Under the pieces are notes generated by a model. That model ran no database searches. It worked only from the letters and a program-made list of their open reading frames with translations, and had not been told where the DNA came from. The translations under genes and the position numbers were made by a program. DNA of 64,000 bases, from contig NTJQ01000006.1 of the NCBI GenBank assembly GCA_002457555.1, positions 4,468 to 68,467 of the forward strand, written 5' to 3'. Of the stretch, positions 11,502 through 25,971 are shown piece by piece. How positions within the stretch are numbered: position 1 is the first letter of the stretch; every line of letters starts with the position of its first letter. The stretch comes from Marine Group II euryarchaeote MED-G37 (lineage in GTDB: Archaea > Thermoplasmatota > Poseidoniia > Poseidoniales > Thalassarchaeaceae).

Positions 11502-12788
11502 TCACTGACGGATTATTCGTGTAATCTCATCTATATCTGCTGGCGCAGAGATTGGAGGGTTAGCTTGCCGGGATTCGATTTCGTCTAACTCGCCCATGTG
11601 ATAATTGACCACTATATCTGGGTCCTTCAGTAGGTTACCGGTGAGCATTCCCACAACACGCTGTTGAGGCCCGATTACCCCCTCTTCTACGAGTCTTCTA
11701 ATTCCCGCTACAGTGGCGCAGCTGGCTGGTTCTGCACCAATGCCTGCTGCGTCGACCAAGGCCTTTGCATCCATGATTTGGTCGTCGGTTACTTCTGTAA
11801 CTATTCCATCCAATGCAGTAATTCCACGCATTGATTTGCGCCAGGAAACAGGATTGCCAATTTTGATTGCGGTTGCTATTGTATCAGCCTTGACTGGTTG
11901 AATATCGGTTCCTTCTAACCAAGCGGTATAGAGAGGATTTGCTCCCGCCGCCTGAACTACTGCAATACGTGGCAATTGATCTATGATTCCTACCTCGTGA
12001 AGTTCCAACAACCCCTTGGCAATCGCTGTGTTGTTTCCGAGGTTACCGCCCGGTAGAACTATCCAATCTGGAGCCTGCCAATCAAGGTCTTGCATAATTT
12101 CCATTCCGATTGCTTTTTGCCCTTCGATCCTGAATGGATTTATTGAATTCAGGAGATATATTCCTTCGCTGTCGCATACCTCCTGAACTAAGGCCATCGC
12201 ATCGTCGAAATCGCCTTCGATTTGGATGGTCTTCGCCCCATATGCGAGGGCCTGACTTAACTTACCGAAAGCAATCTTGCCTTCGGGGATAAAAATTAAC
12301 CCGTCCATGCCTGAAATCGCTGCATAGGAAGCCATTGAAGCAGATGTATTTCCAGTTGATGCGCAAGCAACCGCGTTCATTCCGAGTAGTTTAGCAACAG
12401 TGATTCCGACCGTCATTCCTCTATCCTTGAATGAGCCGGTTGGGTTTTCTCCTTCATGCTTCAACCAGAGGTTTTCGACGCCTACTTTCCTACCCAGTAC
12501 ACTGGCATTGTAGAGGTTTGTCGAGCCTTCGCCTCGGGCCGCCGCAATCTCTTGCAATTTCTCCTCGCCCAGAGGTAGGATTAGTTCTCGGAATCGCCAA
12601 ACCCCTGAGCGGTTAAGCGGGTCTTTGGATGACAATCTCGCATCGAGAATTTCGCGGGTTAATCGACAATCAGACAAATCATGGATTACGTCTAGCGTGC
12701 CCGAACAATCGCAGCGATATCGTAACTCTAGACCTGCGTAATTCTCTCCGCAACGAACGCAAGAAAGGTGCCATGGGACCTCACCCAT
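11502..12788 (-). CDS. thrC: Threonine synthase
   Basis: PLP motif NPTGSFKDRG, ASTGNTSAS, PGGNLGN, EPAS; N-terminal CxxC...CxC. Probable start ATG 12788. Confidence 0.93.
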   Translation of the reverse strand: MGEVPWHLSCVRCGENYAGLELRYRCDCSGTLDVIHDLSDCRLTREILDARLSSKDPLNRSGVWRFRELILPLGEEKLQEIAAARGEGSTNLYNASVLGRKVGVENLWLKHEGENPTGSFKDRGMTVGITVAKLLGMNAVACASTGNTSASMASYAAISGMDGLIFIPEGKIAFGKLSQALAYGAKTIQIEGDFDDAMALVQEVCDSEGIYLLNSINPFRIEGQKAIGMEIMQDLDWQAPDWIVLPGGNLGNNTAIAKGLLELHEVGIIDQLPRIAVVQAAGANPLYTAWLEGTDIQPVKADTIATAIKIGNPVSWRKSMRGITALDGIVTEVTDDQIMDAKALVDAAGIGAEPASCATVAGIRRLVEEGVIGPQQRVVGMLTGNLLKDPDIVVNYHMGELDEIESRQANPPISAPADIDEITRIIRQ

Positions 12789-12875
12789 CGCTCCTTCGAG
12801 TCTGCCGCATTGATTTGAAACCCATCGGGACCTTATCACCGATGCAGACATAGCGAGTCAGTTCGACGCGATAAC

Positions 12876-14102
12876 GTGGGCGGAGACAAGACGAGGTTGC
12901 TTGTTGTCAAGGCAGCAATGACTGTCTATGGAGGGGCGGCCCGCGATTTACTTCGAAATTTACCCGCTATTTCAGGGCATTTTGAGGTGAAATTTCTCTG
13001 CCTTAATTTGCGTGATTCACAAAGAATTCTGATTGAATCAATGGGGATTGAAGTCCTCTGTCCTGAGGAGCAATGGGGAGCAGAAGGAGGTCTTTGGAAT
13101 GAGATTACGGCCGGTCAAGAACGCAGTGCTGCAACCGCGTGGCATAGATTCAAAGAAGCCCGAGAAGCAATCGAATGGGCTGATGCTATTCACCTAACTG
13201 GCGGTAATGGTTCGATGGAATTTCCTGCCTTAGTCCCATCAGACAAGCCGATGCATTTGCACTTTCTTGAATCAAAGCCGGGTATCCACGATGATGTCAG
13301 TCACCTGAAACCAGATGGTAGTGGTAGCTGGAGGCCTAAACTACTGCATATGCTACAAACTCGTCAACGTGCGAGAATTGAGAAGTCGTTTCGTAACTTC
13401 GAAAAAAATGACAAATGGGTTGTCAGTGCAAACTCGGCCTTTTCTGCATCCAATTTCAAGAGGATTTACGGCATTGAGGGAGGGATTTTACATCCTTCCG
13501 TTGATCTATCGGAATTCCCACGACAGCCAAGCTCTAGAGAGACTTCCAGTTTCGAAGCCTCAGGAGTGGGAGTGTTAGGCTCATACGCTGTAACCATTGG
13601 TAGAATTTCTCGATTCAAAGGATCCTATGAGGCGGTTCGGCATATTGTTGGAAGTGAGCTGAATCTAGTTGTTATTGGTGGCGGTTCTGTAGATGAAATC
13701 GAGGACTTACGAGCCTATGGGCAGAAAAATGGAGTTGCTGTTATGGTTCTTTCAGGACTATCCTCAGAAGCCATGCGCGCGATAATGCGAAACTCTGTCG
13801 CAGTCGTTGGTTTGGCTCATGGTGAGGCTTTCGGCCTGACGCCAATCGAAGCGATGGCGTTGGGAACTCCTCCTATCTTCGTTAACGAAGGAGGCTACTG
13901 TGAAACGGTTGTTGATGGCGTCAATGGGCGATTGATTGAGCGTGGTGATTACGACGCGTGGAAGATTGCGCTTGAGCAAGCCAAAGAGCAAGCCACTCGC
14001 GCTATATGGGCTGAGGCTGGCCTTGAAAGAATTGAGGAATTGGGGCTGACACCGGAACGTCATGCCCTGAGGTTAGCCGACAGACTTAGGCCTTTGATGT
14101 GA
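12876..14102 (+). CDS. GT4-family glycosyltransferase
   Basis: GRISRFKG and EAFGLTPIEAMALG (EX7E) motifs. Confidence 0.85.
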   Translation: MGGDKTRLLVVKAAMTVYGGAARDLLRNLPAISGHFEVKFLCLNLRDSQRILIESMGIEVLCPEEQWGAEGGLWNEITAGQERSAATAWHRFKEAREAIEWADAIHLTGGNGSMEFPALVPSDKPMHLHFLESKPGIHDDVSHLKPDGSGSWRPKLLHMLQTRQRARIEKSFRNFEKNDKWVVSANSAFSASNFKRIYGIEGGILHPSVDLSEFPRQPSSRETSSFEASGVGVLGSYAVTIGRISRFKGSYEAVRHIVGSELNLVVIGGGSVDEIEDLRAYGQKNGVAVMVLSGLSSEAMRAIMRNSVAVVGLAHGEAFGLTPIEAMALGTPPIFVNEGGYCETVVDGVNGRLIERGDYDAWKIALEQAKEQATRAIWAEAGLERIEELGLTPERHALRLADRLRPLM

Positions 14103-14131: not shown

Positions 14132-15394
14132 ATGACTGATTTAGGCAATTTGCTTGAGGCCCGAAATCGCCATATCAGCAAATCGTTGTCTATTGGTCAT
14201 GGCAAACCACTTCACATCGTCAAAGGAGAAATGCAGTATCTCTATTCCAGTGATGGGACTAGGTATCTTGATCTTGTAAACAATGTCTGCCATGTCGGTC
14301 ATTGTCATCCAAAAGTGGTCTCTGCTGGCCAACAACAGATGTCTGTTCTAAGCACAAATACACGCTATGTCTACGATGGCTTGACGGACTATATTTCCAG
14401 ATTATCCAACACTCTACCGGATGGACTTGATGTTGGATTCATGGTCAATTCTGGAAGTGAGGCAAACGAGCTGGCTATCCGCTTGGCTAGAGCCCATACA
14501 GGAAACCACGACATGTTGGTAGCCGATGGAGGATATCACGGCAACACCAGTATGCTCGTTCAATTAAGCCCGTACAAATTTCTCGGGCCCGGAGGTAAAG
14601 GGGTAGCAGAGCCCTGGGTGCACGTTGTCCCGGTTCCAGACGAATATCGAAGGGCGGGTGTTGATTACAATCAAGAGATGAAGGATGTAATCTCTAATGC
14701 GAGAAATGTAGCGGGATTTCTGATTGAACCAATGCTCTCATGCGCAGGTCAAATACCGCTGCCTGATGATTATCTGAAACTTGCTCAAACATACACAAAG
14801 GAGGCAGGTGGTCTGCTGATTGTAGACGAGGTGCAAGTTGGCTTTGGCAGGTTTGGAACTCATATGTGGGCCTTCGAAACTCAAGATGTTGTTCCAGATA
14901 TTGTTGTTCTTGGAAAATCGATAGGAAATGGTCACCCTATGGCGGCAGTATTTACAACATCGGAAATTGCTTCCTCTCTCGGAGAAATGGAATGGTTCAG
15001 TTCTACAGGAGGTAATCCTGTATCTTGTGCAATTGGTAATGCAGTACTAGATGTGATTGAAGATGAAGAGTTGCAAGAACAGGCAAGAGAGTATGGTGAA
15101 TATTTCTTAAATGGTCTAAGAAAACTGAAAGATACGTATCCCGTGATTGGAGATGTCAGAGGAAGGGGTTTGTTCATTGGAATCGAGTTTGTTTGCGACC
15201 GGGATACATTGGAACCGAATGCTGAGGAGGCAGGTAGAGTGGTTCGTGGGATGAGAGACCAGGGAGTATTATTGAGCACGGATGGACCGCATCATAATGT
15301 AATCAAAATCAAACCTCCAATGGTGCTGACAAGGCAAGATATCGATATGACTCTAGACCTTCTAAACGATGTATTGAGCGCAAATGGTGATTGA
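14132..15394 (+). CDS. Class III PLP enzyme, ETNPPL/PHYKPL (AGXT2L)-like phospho-lyase
   Basis: NNVCHVGHCHP, NSGSEANELA, DEVQVGFGR, GKSIGNG (PLP Lys), STDGPHHNVIKIKPPM. Confidence 0.8.
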   Translation: MTDLGNLLEARNRHISKSLSIGHGKPLHIVKGEMQYLYSSDGTRYLDLVNNVCHVGHCHPKVVSAGQQQMSVLSTNTRYVYDGLTDYISRLSNTLPDGLDVGFMVNSGSEANELAIRLARAHTGNHDMLVADGGYHGNTSMLVQLSPYKFLGPGGKGVAEPWVHVVPVPDEYRRAGVDYNQEMKDVISNARNVAGFLIEPMLSCAGQIPLPDDYLKLAQTYTKEAGGLLIVDEVQVGFGRFGTHMWAFETQDVVPDIVVLGKSIGNGHPMAAVFTTSEIASSLGEMEWFSSTGGNPVSCAIGNAVLDVIEDEELQEQAREYGEYFLNGLRKLKDTYPVIGDVRGRGLFIGIEFVCDRDTLEPNAEEAGRVVRGMRDQGVLLSTDGPHHNVIKIKPPMVLTRQDIDMTLDLLNDVLSANGD

Positions 15395-16310
15395 AGTGCG
15401 ACGTACAGAAGTGGGAGTTGATGAGGCAAATGAATTGCTCAATCAGGCAGGGCTTCCAAATCTTAACTCAATGGAAATATTACAAGGAGGGTGGGATAAT
15501 ACCAACATTCTCCTGACTTTGATCGACGCTTCCAAAGTCGTTCTAAAAGTATGGAATGCAAATACGATTGAGGAGGTAGGGCGAGTTGTTGCTAGACATT
15601 GTCACCTCGATGAACATGGCATACCTACCGCCGTACCAATCCAATTGGCGAATGGAAGCCTCATTGCTGAGAAGGATGGAATGGCCTGGACTTTACTTCC
15701 ATTCATTGAAGGTGGAATGTTGGGCACTGATGAAAATTCGCTAAAGAGCCTCGGAGAAACCATGGCGCGCCTCCACCAAATTCCTGCCGCAGATTTTTTT
15801 CCAGATGATTACAGAATGGGGTGGTCTCTATTCGAAGAAATGTTCGTTATTGCAGATGAGACAAACACTTGGTCTGATTTTCTCATCACTTTGAAGAAAG
15901 AATCCAAGAGTTTGCGGAATCAAATCCCTGAGGGTTTACCACAAGGTATCTTGCATGGAGATGTGTTTCCGGATAATGTCATTGGAGATGGTTCGGTCAC
16001 TGCTATTCTTGACTTGGAAGAGGCATTCATCGGTCCTTGCGCATTTGATCTTATGATGGCTTTCGTTGGATTTGGTTGGAACGAAGACGAGGCTCTTACC
16101 GATAGATGGAATACATTACTGGAAGGCTATGAGTCAATTCGCCCATTAACTCAAGATGAGAGGTCCGCTCTACCAGCACTGCACAGATACGCCACACTTT
16201 CGATTGCGGCTTGGAGATACTGGAAGCATGTTATGACTCAACCAGATGAGGCACTCAAGAAGCGATATTTGGAAATGGTTCATAGATTGGAGCAACAGAT
16301 TGATTTCTAG
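15384..16310 (+). CDS. APH-fold kinase (type II homoserine kinase or hydroxylysine kinase-like)
   Basis: HGDVFPDNV catalytic loop and LDLEE metal-binding motif; overlaps the upstream gene by 11 nt. Confidence 0.8.
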   Translation: MVIEVRRTEVGVDEANELLNQAGLPNLNSMEILQGGWDNTNILLTLIDASKVVLKVWNANTIEEVGRVVARHCHLDEHGIPTAVPIQLANGSLIAEKDGMAWTLLPFIEGGMLGTDENSLKSLGETMARLHQIPAADFFPDDYRMGWSLFEEMFVIADETNTWSDFLITLKKESKSLRNQIPEGLPQGILHGDVFPDNVIGDGSVTAILDLEEAFIGPCAFDLMMAFVGFGWNEDEALTDRWNTLLEGYESIRPLTQDERSALPALHRYATLSIAAWRYWKHVMTQPDEALKKRYLEMVHRLEQQIDF

Positions 16311-17031: not shown

Positions 17032-17168
17032 TTGGGGTTTGACGACCTGTCTAGCCTATTTCAGAATGACGAAGGAGAATTAATCAACTCAAATTTGGGT
17101 TTTTACGCTGGGTTAGAGTATGTATTCTGAAACATCACTTGATATTGGGAAAGGTGAAGCAGAATGAT

Positions 17169-18413
17169 ATGCGCGTCTGGACGTTCGCTAGATTCATGCG
17201 ACAGATTCTGAAGTCTGGGCCCGCTGACTTAGATTGGATTCAGTCTCAAGGATTACTCGCAGTTAAGTTGGCTCAAATATTTGCACTGCGAAGTGATTTG
17301 ATTCCTGTTGAAAAGTGTCGGCAGTTACAGCAATTGTACCAGCACGCGTCGAGCATTCCTTCCGAAGCCGTATTTCAAAATCTCGAAAAGAGAGCCCCAG
17401 AAGGTTTCTTCGATGCTTTTGACGAAATTGACGGTATTCCAATCGCAGCGGCTTCAGTGGGGCAAGTTCACCGAGCACGCCTGAAGACTGGTGAAGATGT
17501 TGTAATCAAAGTCATTAAGGCTCAGAACGAGAAATCCTTTCGCCGAGATGTAAAGCGCATGCGAAGATGGTTGCGCATATTCCTCATTTTTATGCCAAAG
17601 TTGCGAAGGGTGGGGAATCCTGTGGCGCTTCTGAATCACGTTGCAGATTACACCACCCGGGAGTTAGACCTGCGCAACGAAATCGCTGGGGCGGATGAAT
17701 TGAAGGAAATTCAGATGGATATAGACGATACTTTTCAAATGCACAGACTCCGATTCCCGAAATATTACCAAGAATTATCCAATGAGCACGTACTGGTTTC
17801 AGAATTCATCAGAGGCAATTCCTTGGAAGATGAAATAGACGCAGGGACTCTTTCTTGGTCCACTTTGTTAGATCTGTTTCGAGTTCATGGCGCCTATCTA
17901 TTCGGCATAGGCACTTTCCATGGAGACTTACATCCAGGTAACTGTATCATTGACGATGATGGAATGTTTGTGTTTATCGATAATGGGGCAATTTGTCATG
18001 CCCCGCCCCTTGTGAGCAGTTCTTTATTTCGATTCTTTGAACACCTATCGAACAGCAACTTAAACGGTGCATTCGAGGCATTGCTTGGACTATCCGAAGA
18101 TCCTCTAGATGAAAAGAAAAAAGAGGAATACATGGCGAAAATGTATGACATATATCACGACTTTGAGATGCGTTCTGTTGGAGAGCAAAGCCTTACTCAA
18201 ATCATGATGAAGACTGTTCGTTGTGCGGTTGAGGATGCGGGGGCTGTATTCGGTGAGGAGGCGTTTCCAATTATCCGAGCACTGATGTATCTGGACGGTT
18301 TAGTTATCCGAACACATCCCGATGTGAAACTCATCAGTTCGATGAGCCCCTATCTGGAAGAATTTCGCGCCTGTTTACCAATTCCAGAGCCGGCCCCGCA
18401 ATACACCAATTGA
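17169..18413 (+). CDS. ABC1/AarF/UbiB-family atypical kinase
   Basis: VKLAQ, AAASVGQVHRA, VVIKV, FHGDLHPGN, FIDNG motifs; start 17169 or 17139. Confidence 0.9.
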   Translation: MRVWTFARFMRQILKSGPADLDWIQSQGLLAVKLAQIFALRSDLIPVEKCRQLQQLYQHASSIPSEAVFQNLEKRAPEGFFDAFDEIDGIPIAAASVGQVHRARLKTGEDVVIKVIKAQNEKSFRRDVKRMRRWLRIFLIFMPKLRRVGNPVALLNHVADYTTRELDLRNEIAGADELKEIQMDIDDTFQMHRLRFPKYYQELSNEHVLVSEFIRGNSLEDEIDAGTLSWSTLLDLFRVHGAYLFGIGTFHGDLHPGNCIIDDDGMFVFIDNGAICHAPPLVSSSLFRFFEHLSNSNLNGAFEALLGLSEDPLDEKKKEEYMAKMYDIYHDFEMRSVGEQSLTQIMMKTVRCAVEDAGAVFGEEAFPIIRALMYLDGLVIRTHPDVKLISSMSPYLEEFRACLPIPEPAPQYTN

Positions 18414-18414
18414 A

Positions 18415-18428
18415 TAATTCTAGAATTA
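18415..18428. promoter_or_regulatory. 14-bp perfect palindrome upstream of crtB (possible operator)
   Basis: TAATTCTAGAATTA is its own reverse complement; AT-rich, so it could be chance. Confidence 0.25.
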
Positions 18429-18483
18429 AGGGGACAATTAAGAAAACACTTCATTAAATAAGAATCATGGAGGATGAGAATAT

Positions 18484-19500
18484 ATGATGGGAGACGTCGT
18501 GAGTAATGATACTGCTACCTTAGGGCAGTCTTACCTCGAATGCGAAAGAATCGCAAAGGAGTCTTCGTCCTCATTTTTGAGAGCATTCAAAACACTCCCC
18601 AAAGCCAAAAGAGACGGTATCAAAGCCCTCTATGCTTTTTGTAGAAGAGCCGATGATGTAGCTGACGGAGACTGGTTACCAGATTTTTCTTCGTTCACTC
18701 CTCAACAGATGGGCTCACTTCGATTGAGAGCTTTGCGGAGGTCGAAATACCTAGACGAAAAACATCGCTCCCGTGGGACTTTAGATCACGAAGGTCACAT
18801 CACTAAGCTCTGCGCTCTAATTTACTTACGAGATAACATCCAACAAGGAGTAAATGATAACTTTCCGAAAGAAAGGTTCTTCCAAGCATTTTGGGATACG
18901 ATTGAGAAGTTCAATATTCCATCTCAGCACCTACATTCCTTGCTAGACGGGATGGAAGATGATCTCTATCCTACAAACTACCAGACCTACGAAGATCTGC
19001 GAGGTTATTGCTACAACGTTGCATCCTCAGTGGGCCTTTGTTTGCTCCACCTGTATGGTTACGATGGGCAAGAGGCTGAGCACTACGCCGATGAGATGGG
19101 GATTTTTCTACAGAAGGTCAACATATTGAGAGATATTCAGTCAGATCTCGCATCGGGTAGAGTTTACTTGCCTACCGCCGAGTTACAATCCTTCGGAATA
19201 TGTACCTCTGACTTGTCCTCTCCAAGTCTTGCTTCAAACCCAAACTGGCAGGAATTCATGAAAGATTACATCCAGAGGTGCAATGCTCACAAAGAAGAAG
19301 CGGTCAAATTACTTCCAATGATTCATCCAGAATCGAGAAAAAGTCCAGCAATTATGGTCTCAGTATATTCACAACTGATCAAGCAGGCAGAGAAATTGTG
19401 TGGAAACGTTGTGTCCCAGCGCCTCAGCCTAACCGTCATGCAGAAGGCAAACGTGCTGATGTCGACTCTCGGTGTGATTACCGTCGTGCAAGAGGACTGA
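18484..19500 (+). CDS. crtB: Phytoene/squalene synthase family protein (phytoene synthase)
   Basis: YAFCRRADDVAD, GMEDD, YCYNVASSVG, NILRDIQSD, GRVYLP motifs; adjacent to crtI. Confidence 0.88.
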   Translation: MMGDVVSNDTATLGQSYLECERIAKESSSSFLRAFKTLPKAKRDGIKALYAFCRRADDVADGDWLPDFSSFTPQQMGSLRLRALRRSKYLDEKHRSRGTLDHEGHITKLCALIYLRDNIQQGVNDNFPKERFFQAFWDTIEKFNIPSQHLHSLLDGMEDDLYPTNYQTYEDLRGYCYNVASSVGLCLLHLYGYDGQEAEHYADEMGIFLQKVNILRDIQSDLASGRVYLPTAELQSFGICTSDLSSPSLASNPNWQEFMKDYIQRCNAHKEEAVKLLPMIHPESRKSPAIMVSVYSQLIKQAEKLCGNVVSQRLSLTVMQKANVLMSTLGVITVVQED

Positions 19501-19502
19501 AT

Positions 19503-21089
19503 ATGCAACTCGCAACACATTCCATCGAGCCTGAGGCATCGATAAATTCAGACCAGGATGTTCTGATTGTAGGAGCAGGGCCTGGTGGCCTTGCATGTTC
19601 ATTGTTGCTTGCGAAAGCAGGTTTAAAGGTAAAAATAATCGAAAAATCAGATTGTGTTGGAGGGAGGACCAAAGTAATAGAAAAAGATGGTTATCGATAC
19701 GATAACGGCCCTACATTTTTCCATTACACCGAAATAATTGAAGAGATTTTTCAAGCGATTGGTAAAGATGCACATGAAGAATTGAATCTCATAAAAATTG
19801 ATCCTAATTACAGATTGGTGTTCGGCGAAGGAGGTGCTCTAAATGCTAGTACCGACATGGATTATATGACGAAACAAATTGAGCAATTGTGTGGGAAGAA
19901 AGATGCTGAAGGGTTCAAAAAATATGTTTTGGATAATAGGAAAAAATTGAAATTATCAAAAAATTGTTTAAATTCACCATGGACAAGTTGGACTAATCTA
20001 GCAAACAAAAGAGCTCTGCGGGTGGCTCAAGTTCTAAGACCCTGGAGAAGTGTTGCATCTGATTTATCAAAGTTTTTTGATGACGATAGAATGCAATTGG
20101 CGATGAGTTTTCAAACTAAATACCTAGGAATGTCACCGTTTCAAGCACCTAGTCTTTTCACAATATTGTCTTTCCTAGAATTAGAATACGGTATTTATCA
20201 CGCTAAAGGAGGATTAGGTACAGTAACTGAAAGAATGGGGGCATTAGCAGAAGAATTAGGTGTGGAAATATGCCTCAATGAGCCTGTAGAAGAGTGTCTT
20301 TTTGATGGTAAAAAAATAGTAGGGCTCAAGACAGGAAAGAATACCTATACCGCCAAGAAATATGTAATGAATGTGGATTTTGCTACTGGTATGAAGGGGC
20401 TTATTCCTGATAAATTAAGGAAAAGATGGTCTAACAAGAAATTAGACGAGAAATCTTATTCTTGTTCTACCTTCATGCTCTATCTTGGAGTAGATAAGAA
20501 ATATGATTTAGATCATCATCAAATATATGCATCAAAAGATTATCACACGAACCTAAAAGATGTGACAGAGAATAAAATAACCTGGGATGACCCTTCATTG
20601 TATGTTCAAAATGCATGCTTAACAGACCCATCAATGGCTCCAGAGGGGCATTCGACTATCTATGTCTTAGTTCCCGTTTCTAATGTTCATAAGTCAATAA
20701 ATTGGGATGAAATAAAGCATGATTACAGAGATGTAGTGCTTGAAACCATGAAGAAATTGGGGTATGATGATTTGAAAGAACACATAGTTTCAGAAAACAT
20801 AGTTACCCCAGATGATTGGGGTGAAAGAGATATTTACAAAGGTGCAGTTTTCAATCTAGCACACGGATTAGACCAAATGCTCTGGAGAAGGCCACAGAAT
20901 AGATTTGAAGAATTGGATGATCTATTCCTAGTCGGCGGAGGAACCCATCCCGGAAGCGGATTACCCACCATATTCGAAAGTGGGAGAATTGGTGCCAAAT
21001 TGATTTGTTCTGATTTAGGAATAGAACCGGATTGGAATGGTGTAGATACTTGGTTTCCGGACCTGAAGAGGCCCAAGGCAAACAGATAG
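19503..21089 (+). CDS. crtI: CrtI-family phytoene desaturase
   Basis: GAGPGG FAD motif, DNGPT, GIYHAKGG, GGGTHPGSGLP; start at ATG 19503, 2 nt after the crtB stop. Confidence 0.88.
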   Translation: MQLATHSIEPEASINSDQDVLIVGAGPGGLACSLLLAKAGLKVKIIEKSDCVGGRTKVIEKDGYRYDNGPTFFHYTEIIEEIFQAIGKDAHEELNLIKIDPNYRLVFGEGGALNASTDMDYMTKQIEQLCGKKDAEGFKKYVLDNRKKLKLSKNCLNSPWTSWTNLANKRALRVAQVLRPWRSVASDLSKFFDDDRMQLAMSFQTKYLGMSPFQAPSLFTILSFLELEYGIYHAKGGLGTVTERMGALAEELGVEICLNEPVEECLFDGKKIVGLKTGKNTYTAKKYVMNVDFATGMKGLIPDKLRKRWSNKKLDEKSYSCSTFMLYLGVDKKYDLDHHQIYASKDYHTNLKDVTENKITWDDPSLYVQNACLTDPSMAPEGHSTIYVLVPVSNVHKSINWDEIKHDYRDVVLETMKKLGYDDLKEHIVSENIVTPDDWGERDIYKGAVFNLAHGLDQMLWRRPQNRFEELDDLFLVGGGTHPGSGLPTIFESGRIGAKLICSDLGIEPDWNGVDTWFPDLKRPKANR

Positions 21090-21108
21090 AAACTATGGAA
21101 GTGGAAAA

Positions 21109-21858
21109 TTGTCGGTTGTATGGGTATTAGGAGCCGCGGGAGGAGTTGGTAGTGTTGTTTGTCAGAATCTTTCCAAGCAAGGCTGGAAAGTTGTAGGCAG
21201 TGGAAGAACTGAGGAGAGTCTCCAGGCTCTTACTTCCCAGATAGACAACCTCGATATCTTACCCGTCGACGCAAGAGATGATGATGCAATGAAGCAGGCT
21301 GTGGCGGATATCATACAAACACATGGTCGTCTTGATGCAGTAGTTGTCGCTGTAGGGTCAATCCTACTCAGACCATTGCACGCTACCTCCGCTGAACAAG
21401 TCCGGGATACCATTGAGCAAAACCTCACTACTGCATTCAATGCAGTTAGATCGGCGGCGGTTCCAATGATGCGTGGTGACGGAGGAAGAATTGTTCTGTT
21501 TTCTTCCGTTGCGGCCACACATGGTATGACTAATCATGCCGCTATTGCCGCAGCAAAAGGAGCTGTTGAAGGGTTGACTCGGGCCTCGGCTGCAGACTAT
21601 GCAAAACGAGGGATTCGAGTAAACGCGATTGCGCCTGCAATGACTGATACGCCAATGTCTGAAAATCTACTGAAAAGTGAGGCTAGTCGAAAAATCAGTG
21701 ACTCGATGCATCCGGTAGGAAGGATTGGAGAAGCAAAGGAGATCGCAGATGTCGCATCTTGGCTTGTTGATGGTGCACCTGAATGGATGACGGGTCAAAT
21801 CATCGGGGTCAATGGTGGGTTGGGCACAATAAAACCTCAGGAGTCTATCAAGGCTTAA
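21109..21858 (+). CDS. Short-chain dehydrogenase/reductase
   Basis: GAAGGVG, SS, and IAAAK at the YxxxK position (Tyr not conserved), RVNAIAP. Confidence 0.85.
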   Translation: MSVVWVLGAAGGVGSVVCQNLSKQGWKVVGSGRTEESLQALTSQIDNLDILPVDARDDDAMKQAVADIIQTHGRLDAVVVAVGSILLRPLHATSAEQVRDTIEQNLTTAFNAVRSAAVPMMRGDGGRIVLFSSVAATHGMTNHAAIAAAKGAVEGLTRASAADYAKRGIRVNAIAPAMTDTPMSENLLKSEASRKISDSMHPVGRIGEAKEIADVASWLVDGAPEWMTGQIIGVNGGLGTIKPQESIKA

Positions 21859-21872
21859 TTTGGAGGACTGGT

Positions 21873-22472
21873 ATGAATAAAGTAGCTGGATTATTACTAA
21901 CGTTAATTCTACTATCTTCTTCAGCAGGATGTTTGGCTGATGAAATACAAGAAGAATTGGAAGTGGAGGAGGCTGAAGATAACAGATTCACCTTCGCACT
22001 CCCTACTTTAGGAAGAGATGTAGATGGCGTATCTATGCTAGATCTGACTACTGAATTAGAGCAACAACCGGTTCTGTTATTTTGGGTAAGTTCACAATGT
22101 CAAGGTTGTCATGAATGGACGGAAGGTATCAGAGATAACAATCTCAACTACAGCGTGATGCAACCAATCACAATTCATAGATATGGTAACTTCGAATCGG
22201 AAGACAAGATTATGCAAGTCTACGGGAATAATTCAAGCGACCATTATTCACCATGGCCAGTGGTTACTGGCGCCCATTCACGCCTAGCACTAGATTTCGA
22301 CACAAGAGAACCTTCGGAACTTTCTGTTGTCGAAGCTTTTGGCAATCTTCCGACTCCCTCTGTGATTCTACTAGACAAGAATGGTAATATCGTTTGGGAA
22401 GCGACCTCATATTGGTATTCTGCAGACCAATTGGAAGAGGCAGGAGAAATCGCAGCTGAATTAGGAGACTGA
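21873..22472 (+). CDS. Redoxin/TlpA-like lipoprotein
   Basis: Signal with SAGC lipobox, FWVSSQCQGC, PTPSVILLDKNGNIVW; GGAGG SD before ATG 21873. Confidence 0.7.
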   Translation: MNKVAGLLLTLILLSSSAGCLADEIQEELEVEEAEDNRFTFALPTLGRDVDGVSMLDLTTELEQQPVLLFWVSSQCQGCHEWTEGIRDNNLNYSVMQPITIHRYGNFESEDKIMQVYGNNSSDHYSPWPVVTGAHSRLALDFDTREPSELSVVEAFGNLPTPSVILLDKNGNIVWEATSYWYSADQLEEAGEIAAELGD

Positions 22473-25173: not shown

Positions 25174-25971
25174 ATGCCTGGGGCGTATGACCGAAGTAGA
25201 AATGCTGCAGTCGTTCGCCAGATTTCCACTAATTTTGAGGCTGCTGTGTCTAGCTTCTTTGGAACTAGAACGCCTAACCGAGAAGTGGCGCAGGGTGCAC
25301 ACGACGCATATGTTGCGGCTCTTCGTGCTCATGGCACTGATGTGACTGTTCTACCAGGATTGGATGAACATCCAGATTGCTGCTTTGTCGAAGATACTGC
25401 TGTGATGGTAGATGGAAAAGCGATTATTCCGAACATGGGACATCACTCTAGAGAAGGGGAGCAAGTTGCTGTCGCTGAACATCTTTCTTCTAGTGCTGAA
25501 ATTATCAACATGCCAGAGGGTGCTAAACTCGATGGTGGCGATGTTGTATTCTTCGATGATCGCTACTTGATAGGGGTTTCAACTAGAACAAATCAGGAGG
25601 GCGCAGACTTTCTTGCGAGTCATGTTCGAGAAGACGGTTTTGATTGTGAATTCATCGATATTCCAAGTTCAACTCTGCACCTTACAACCGTATGCTCATC
25701 GCCTCGTCCTGATCTGATTATTGCCGCTGAAGGGCATCTTACTGCTTCTCAATTGGAGCCACTAGCAGAGAGCGTGATTTGGGTGCCGAATAGAGAGAGT
25801 TACGCCGCGAACACAATCGGTTACAAAGGCGATAGGGCCATCATTGCTGATGGTTTTCCTGTAGTTCGACAAACCATGCTCGATGAGGGTTTCAAGATTA
25901 CAAGCGTGGATATGAAGGAAATCATGCAGGCTGACGGTTCGTTGACTTGTCTCTCGATTTTCAACGCCTGA
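25174..25971 (+). CDS. Dimethylarginine dimethylaminohydrolase/amidinotransferase family
   Basis: FVEDTAV, LDGGDV, LHL and GSLTCLS (Asp/Glu-His-Cys triad). Confidence 0.85.
   Translation: MPGAYDRSRNAAVVRQISTNFEAAVSSFFGTRTPNREVAQGAHDAYVAALRAHGTDVTVLPGLDEHPDCCFVEDTAVMVDGKAIIPNMGHHSREGEQVAVAEHLSSSAEIINMPEGAKLDGGDVVFFDDRYLIGVSTRTNQEGADFLASHVREDGFDCEFIDIPSSTLHLTTVCSSPRPDLIIAAEGHLTASQLEPLAESVIWVPNRESYAANTIGYKGDRAIIADGFPVVRQTMLDEGFKITSVDMKEIMQADGSLTCLSIFNA

Follow-up and report, generated by a model that had tools for sequence, protein, structure and literature searches.

The question raised by this locus is whether two overlapping genes of a marine archaeon, one for a pyridoxal phosphate (PLP)-dependent enzyme and one for a kinase, encode consecutive steps of a single pathway, and on which substrate such a pathway would act. 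In surface seawater, marine group II (MGII) archaea rank with the most abundant heterotrophs. Since there is no cultured representative, their substrate range has to be inferred from their genes. We analysed a stretch of 64,000 nucleotides (nt), here called the window, from the Marine Group II euryarchaeote MED-G37. Its assembly, referred to as G000, belongs to marine group IIb (MGIIb), spans 1.28 Mb and is 79% complete. As had been predicted from the sequence alone, an AGXT2L-type PLP enzyme and an APH-fold kinase are encoded by overlapping open reading frames (ORFs), which share 11 nt:

14132-15394, plus strand: PLP enzyme P0001, 420 amino acids (aa); Pfam Aminotran_3 PF00202, 269.5 bits
15384-16310, plus strand: APH-fold kinase P0002, 308 aa; Pfam APH, 102.5 bits

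Our favoured reading, to which we give a probability of about 0.5, is that both genes form a split and re-ordered kinase and phospho-lyase module, in which the original kinase was replaced by a resident, non-orthologous kinase resembling type II homoserine kinase (ThrB-II). With a bacterial-type lyase beside an unusual partner kinase, the locus probably encodes a known two-step breakdown route that has been put together anew. The original prediction of a phospho-lyase and kinase pair stands for the type of lyase and for its linkage to the kinase. It does not stand for the type of kinase, which by tree and fold lies on the ThrB-II side and is not of the kind found in the fusions described below or of the hydroxylysine kinase (HYKK) kind.

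Families of the two enzymes

AGXT2L/ETNPPL enzymes catalyse a 1,2-elimination on an O-phosphorylated vicinal amino alcohol, releasing an aldehyde, ammonium and phosphate. The vertebrate members ETNPPL (AGXT2L1) and PHYKPL (AGXT2L2), together with HYKK, are reportedly the subject of work by Veiga-da-Cunha et al. in 2012, to which PMC8154272 refers. The best solved relative of P0001 is human ethanolamine-phosphate phospho-lyase ETNPPL (6TOR; 411 bits, E 5e-122, 47% identity), followed by an Arthrobacter phospholyase (5G4I; 283 bits). The best solved relative that is not a lyase is dialkylglycine decarboxylase, with 204 bits, and transaminases score lower. Among NCBIfam models, the top match is the C-terminal half of the fusion model PRK06148 (1015 positions) with 568 bits, and transaminase models reach at most 272. 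Aligned with ETNPPL, P0001 shows the same long motifs of the family and the same PLP lysine. The signature quoted for the enzyme in the original prediction is present (STDGPHHNVIKIKPPM, residues 382-397). The PLP lysine is K262, within LGKSIGNGHP; this residue in its GKxxGNGxP motif and the family motifs are kept in all 115 MGII homologues. P0001 therefore combines a class-III fold and its PLP lysine with a closer similarity to characterised phospho-lyases than to other class-III enzymes. On these alignments it is very probably a stand-alone phospho-lyase of the AGXT2L/ETNPPL type, with the predicted activity of that family.

That P0001 might be an ordinary omega-transaminase is suggested by its class-III aminotransferase fold, which is mostly populated by transaminases (PMC8154272). 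We consider this very improbable, given that no transaminase, decarboxylase or racemase approaches the scores of the two solved phospho-lyases and that the long motifs are those of ETNPPL. Moreover, the nearest non-archaeal relatives of P0001 are fused to kinases, an association that is sensible only with a phosphorylated substrate. A tblastn search of the 79% complete G000 with P0001 (E <1e-3) found no second class-III aminotransferase, so the lyase appears to be the sole member of this fold in the genome.

The kinase-coupled relatives are bacterial proteins of about 770 aa in which an N-terminal APH domain is followed by a class-III domain at the C-terminus. Thousands of them were present among the longer proteins searched, and the prediction that bacteria carry fused versions of the pair was correct. 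Their class-III half is about 60% identical to P0001. In the lyase tree, the MGII lyases form one clade (support 99) nested among the bacterial fusions and sister to two of them (support 96). This tree was rooted on a rotifer protein with two AGXT2L domains, and its sample left out stand-alone bacterial homologues. A near-length search for such homologues returned exclusively MGII proteins among its best 120 matches, which leaves room for a stand-alone bacterial donor. As far as the tree sample goes, the MGIIb lyase appears to have been acquired once, from bacteria carrying the kinase-lyase fusion. The rotifer protein itself (P0273, 911 aa, from Didymodactylos carnosus) carries a tandem of AGXT2L-type domains, both of which show about 44% identity with P0001.

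The family of the kinase is less straightforward. P0002 carries the active-site landmarks HGDVFPDN (residues 191-198) and D210, of which H191, D193, N198 and D210 are invariant. A sequence search of the Protein Data Bank at E values up to 10 gave the Agrobacterium ThrB-II structure 2PPQ as the sole significant match, so no solved amino-alcohol kinase was recovered. For the AlphaFold model of P0002 (pLDDT 95.3), too, the top Foldseek match is 2PPQ (TM score 0.83, root-mean-square deviation 2.8 Å over 305 columns). NahK and YihE follow with TM scores of 0.72 and 0.71, and the sequence match to the NahK-type sugar kinase is not significant (E 0.6). Fold and catalytic loop, of the HGDLFxDN type, are thus like those of ThrB-II. 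The kinase tree, with 73 rows, places P0002 on a side that holds canonical ThrB-II, uncharacterised ThrB-II-like proteins and a monophyletic MGII group (support 100). The canonical members are PGAP-annotated homoserine kinases of Sinorhizobium, Burkholderia and Acinetobacter plus an unannotated Neisseria ORF. Of 50 columns invariant in four canonical ThrB-II, 26 are retained by the MGII kinases and 18 by the fused ones, 14 of them by both groups.

Despite this likeness in tree and fold, P0002 stays well below the curated cut-offs of both NCBIfam ThrB-II models (TIGR00938, PRK05231), with 120.5 bits (cut-off 271) and 103.2 bits (cut-off 255.9). It is therefore ThrB-II-like but no demonstrable ThrB-II. 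Within the tree the archaeal kinases form a clade apart from the canonical enzymes, and their nearest relatives are uncharacterised. These nearest non-MGII relatives also fall below the ThrB-II cut-offs, and their gene contexts were uninformative.

Linkage of lyase and kinase across the Poseidoniales

We surveyed 167 Poseidoniales genomes of at least 85% completeness, plus G000; below, g-numbers stand for genera, f3 for a family, G-numbers for genomes and L-numbers for loci. All 23 lyase-bearing genomes also carry the kinase, and in 13 of the 23 both genes are adjacent, in two architectures. In genus g1 they point in the same direction and overlap, and the partner kinases represent three subclades. 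A divergent arrangement, with about 130 bp between both genes, occurs in G143 and G145, in a chromosomal setting unrelated to that of g1. The linkage of lyase and kinase exceeds chance expectation. Where the lyase is located away from the kinase, no other kinase stands beside it. Furthermore, a search of five genomes, of which four exceed 90% completeness, yielded neither a choline/ethanolamine kinase nor a further strong APH-family gene, and P0002 is the only strong APH gene of G000. In G141 a MAPEG gene lies between lyase and kinase. The neighbours of the pair in g12 and g13 (photolyase, MAPEG, CNNM, cupredoxin) were considered as a clue to the substrate and discarded, all being unrelated.

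In G000, the pair belongs to a single-direction run that also includes two flanking genes:

12876-14102, plus strand: GT4-family glycosyltransferase, first gene of the run GT4-lyase-kinase-MOSC; Pfam Glycos_transf_1, 79.8 bits
16444-16929, plus strand: small MOSC-domain protein, downstream of the kinase; Pfam MOSC, 55.5 bits

According to the reading that we favour, a bacterial donor with a lyase fused to its own kinase would have supplied the gene to marine group IIb in a single acquisition, the archaeal copy lacking the kinase domain. In G000 the lyase gene would then have entered an older GT4-kinase-MOSC operon, immediately before the resident kinase gene and overlapping it. The resident kinase would phosphorylate ethanolamine, 1-aminopropan-2-ol or a hydroxy-amino acid with a vicinal amine. 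Cleavage of the resulting product by the lyase would complete a phosphorylate-then-eliminate route that needs no B12. We thus propose both that the product of the kinase is the substrate of the lyase and that this substrate is of the kind just named.

The comparison with known systems helps to delimit this proposal. With vertebrate ETNPPL/PHYKPL and HYKK, the archaeal pair shares the lyase subfamily (identity, motifs and PLP lysine) and the proposed logic of phosphorylation followed by elimination. However, the archaeal genes are adjacent and overlapping, the kinase is not of the type fused to such lyases in bacteria, and nothing points to hydroxylysine. Collagen or algal protein as the substrate likewise found no support in the analysis. 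The bacterial APH/class-III fusions (PRK06148, PRK06149; about 770-1015 aa, for instance on Sinorhizobium meliloti pSymB) contain the closest non-archaeal lyase half, and the archaeal lyases nest there; in contrast to them, the archaeal unit is split, its order is reversed to lyase and then kinase, and its kinase is non-orthologous. Bacterial amino-alcohol kinase and phospho-lyase routes offer the two-step chemistry that we propose, with a stand-alone lyase. One is represented by Arthrobacter A1RDF1 (5G4I), to which P0001 is just moderately similar. Another is that of the 1-amino-2-propanol kinase/phospho-lyase in the aminoacetone microcompartment of Mycobacterium.

Several observations weigh against the re-assembled module. 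The kinase is only 25-30% identical to the fusion kinase domains (47-61 bits). The fused kinases form a clade of their own (support 100), separated by long branches from the ThrB-II/MGII clade, and P0002 does not match PRK06148 or PRK06149 in their N-terminal portion. Judged by sequence, P0002 is not orthologous to the fusion-type, presumed HYKK-like, kinase domain; the tree holds no named vertebrate HYKK. Of the phylogeny that had been asked for, the lyase half bears out the relation to the bacterial fusions, whereas the kinase half departs from the fused kinases and joins ThrB-II. The kinase is also the more widespread gene, occurring in 51 genomes as against 23 for the lyase (46 of the 63 genomes of its family, plus four from family f3). 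Both the lyase and thrC, the threonine synthase gene, are lacking in at least 16 good-quality genomes with the kinase, so the kinase has a function of its own. In 10 of the 23 lyase genomes, the lyase lies 3-53 kb away from the kinase or on another contig, beside a gene resembling dimethylargininase (DDAH); in genus g18 the distance is 36-53 kb. The kinases adjacent to a lyase are spread over four subclades of a tree that departs from the genera, and they show no parallel residue changes when compared with their sister kinases, so a dedicated lyase-type kinase clade was not found. The most constant neighbours of the kinase are the GT4-type glycosyltransferase upstream and MOSC downstream. Insertions make the locus a variable island, in which adjacency is weaker evidence than usual. 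Finally, if the kinase were specific for homoserine, its product would carry amine and phosphate in 1,3 positions and would be no substrate for a 1,2-elimination.

The MGII kinase tree is incongruent with the assignment of genomes to genera, and kinases from four subclades occupy one chromosomal position in genus g1. At this locus the flanking genes are 80-90% identical and the kinases about 45%, a pattern in the sequences that suggests repeated replacement of the kinase gene in place between lineages.

A wider version of our reading, which we put forward tentatively and rate as somewhat unlikely, is that MGIIb took the lyase half of the bacterial fusion and repeatedly wired it to a resident, general amino-alcohol/hydroxy-amino-acid kinase, thereby recovering carbon, nitrogen and phosphorus independently of B12 from the ethanolamine-type head groups of algal lipids. 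If the pair works as in our main reading, MGIIb would possess a compact cobalamin-free route by which amino-alcohol head groups give up ammonium and phosphate. The pair would also clearly exemplify non-orthologous replacement, one half of a fused two-enzyme module having been exchanged after transfer between domains of life.

The kinase and the threonine route

The kinase is at present automatically annotated as homoserine kinase type II, and the original prediction offered as its alternative that it serves a thrC gene about 2.6 kb away. The neighbour was confirmed as threonine synthase, at a measured distance of 2.5 kb from the start of P0002, and is divergent from the GT4-lyase-kinase-MOSC run. 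A second gene, outside the window, bears on this alternative:

11502-12851, minus strand: thrC, threonine synthase, long form; TIGR00260, 276 bits against a cut-off of 167
G000:C2:651-1268, outside the window: ThrH-type phosphoserine:homoserine phosphotransferase; over cut-off with NF010109 and TIGR02137

Were the kinase a type II homoserine kinase feeding the neighbouring thrC, the lyase would be functionally unrelated to it. ThrB-II is the closest characterised family to P0002 by sequence, tree and fold. In addition, thrC lies 2.5-5 kb away in g1, and a thrC of a different type lies within about 4 kb of the kinase in g18. The kinase is present in 28 of the 31 thrC-positive genomes. The search for another thrB that had been called for, which covered 41 genomes for a GHMP-type ThrB over cut-off and six for HomK (TIGR02535), found neither, but it did meet with ThrH, which scores 292.7 bits with NF010109 (cut-off 133), 260.5 bits with TIGR02137 (cut-off 223.4) and 50.7 bits with SerB. 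The distribution of the four genes over the survey is as follows:

ThrH: g1 12/12; g12 1/4; g13 0/4; g17 4/6; g18 9/10; g7, g9 and g15 none; g16 0/5; g8, g10, g11 and g14 none; f3 1/102
thrC: g1 12/12; g12 1/4 (the genome that has ThrH); g13 0/4; g17 6/6; g18 10/10; g7, g9 and g15 none; g16 0/5; g8, g10, g11 and g14 none; f3 1/102
Kinase: g1 12/12; g12 4/4; g13 4/4; g17 5/6; g18 9/10; g7, g9 and g15 all; g16 4/5; g8, g10, g11 and g14 none; f3 4/102
Lyase: g1 11/12; g12 2/4; g13 1/4; g17 1/6; g18 7/10; g7, g9 and g15 none; g16 0/5; g8, g10, g11 and g14 none; f3 0/102

Genus by genus, ThrH follows thrC almost exactly, down to the single positive genome of g12, whereas the kinase does not. Across the 167 genomes the kinase does not behave as a thrC-bound, sole source of O-phosphohomoserine, and in g17 and G140 thrC and kinase are unlinked. 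ThrH is thus the better candidate to supply ThrC with O-phosphohomoserine. Together with the scores far below the ThrB-II cut-offs and the kinase-positive genomes that lack thrC, this makes it improbable that P0002 is the homoserine kinase of the thrC route. Such a role is weakened and no longer needed. Both enzymes may nevertheless coexist, since ThrB-II and ThrH are both present in Pseudomonas, as cited in the GapMind preprint. In any case, because ThrH fits better, the label "homoserine kinase type II" is unfit for inferring threonine biosynthesis in MGIIb genomes.

Searches for upstream steps of the pathway had no success. Homoserine dehydrogenase was not found in 41 genomes or aspartate-semialdehyde dehydrogenase in six, and neither MetX nor an aspartokinase-sized amino-acid kinase was found in the genomes searched. 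Judged from this gene content, the route looks like the last two steps of threonine synthesis only, dependent on imported homoserine. A comparable situation has been described in Trypanosoma brucei, where homoserine kinase and ThrC without the upstream pathway serve homoserine salvage (PMC4460637). The MGIIb genomes resemble that system and the ThrH of Pseudomonas in having ThrH and ThrC while the aspartokinase and the two dehydrogenases were not found; P0002 is not required for it. We judge that the thrC neighbour belongs to this separate ThrH-ThrC salvage route, a genome feature distinct from the lyase-kinase pair.

MGIIb contains two kinds of threonine synthase. The long form is extended by about 100 aa at its N-terminus and is found in genus g1, beside the kinase island. 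The short form (g17, g18 and G140; for example L045:11403-12518) always lies just upstream of a ubiquitous PLP enzyme of Cys/Met metabolism, and in g18 these two genes are followed by a LysE/RhtB-like exporter. The Cys/Met-metabolism enzyme, which is near the kinase in some lineages, was considered as a sign of O-phosphohomoserine use and rejected because it occurs in 164 of the 167 genomes irrespective of the kinase.

Neighbours of the kinase and the variable island

The kinase may instead belong to the older GT4-kinase-MOSC operon, acting on a sugar or another small molecule in a surface-glycan or other pathway. The lyase would then stand beside it by chance and work alone on a pre-phosphorylated substrate, for example phosphoethanolamine that derives from lipid head groups or from dissolved organic phosphorus. 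In seven MGIIb genera the kinase directly follows a GT4-type gene, in four it is directly followed by MOSC, and the genes often overlap by 4 nt (kinase and MOSC do so in G023, G020, G174 and G140). The lyase stands between GT4 and kinase in the lineage of G000 only. Moreover, in g7, g9, g15 and g16 the kinase is found among sugar-modification genes (GFO/IDH/MocA and DegT), with neither lyase nor thrC. The distance between both genes in g18 and the lack of specificity-like changes in lyase-adjacent kinases are in line with a glycan-related role, and to our knowledge human ETNPPL does not require a dedicated neighbouring kinase. On the other hand, chance proximity does not easily account for adjacency in two independent architectures, of which one lies away from the GT4 island, or for the presence of the kinase in every lyase-bearing genome. 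The closest non-archaeal relatives of the lyase are obligatorily coupled to a kinase by fusion, and the kinase itself is nearer to ThrB-II than to NahK. We therefore regard a glycan or other operon kinase with an independent lyase as unlikely, if less so than a homoserine kinase, and retain the re-assembled kinase and phospho-lyase module as our preferred reading.

GT4, kinase and then MOSC or a 200-aa protein is the most widespread arrangement of this kinase family in MGIIb, as seen in the window genes and in loci L019, L036-L039, L045 and L049. In the window, the called starts of thrC (minus strand) and GT4 (plus strand, GTG) are separated by just 24 nt (12851-12876). This leaves scarcely any room for two archaeal promoters, so either one of the starts is probably mis-called or promoters lie within coding sequence.

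The two types of thrC, the lyase and a carotenoid cluster occupy different points of a conserved backbone, which makes the locus a variable island. Two further features of the window belong to this context:

17139-22472: ABC1-crtB-crtI carotenoid cluster, between MOSC and the gene of a TSP3-repeat surface protein
25174-25971: DDAH/dimethylargininase-like gene; best NCBIfam match 127 bits, below cut-off

The DDAH-like gene was rejected as a partner in the function of the lyase, since it belongs to the backbone and is also present in genera that lack the lyase. It is conserved in MGIIb, and the lyase lies divergently beside it in part of g1 and in g18. The carotenoid cluster is not at that position in G023, G017, G140, G165 and G169, and thus appears to have been inserted into the same variable island.

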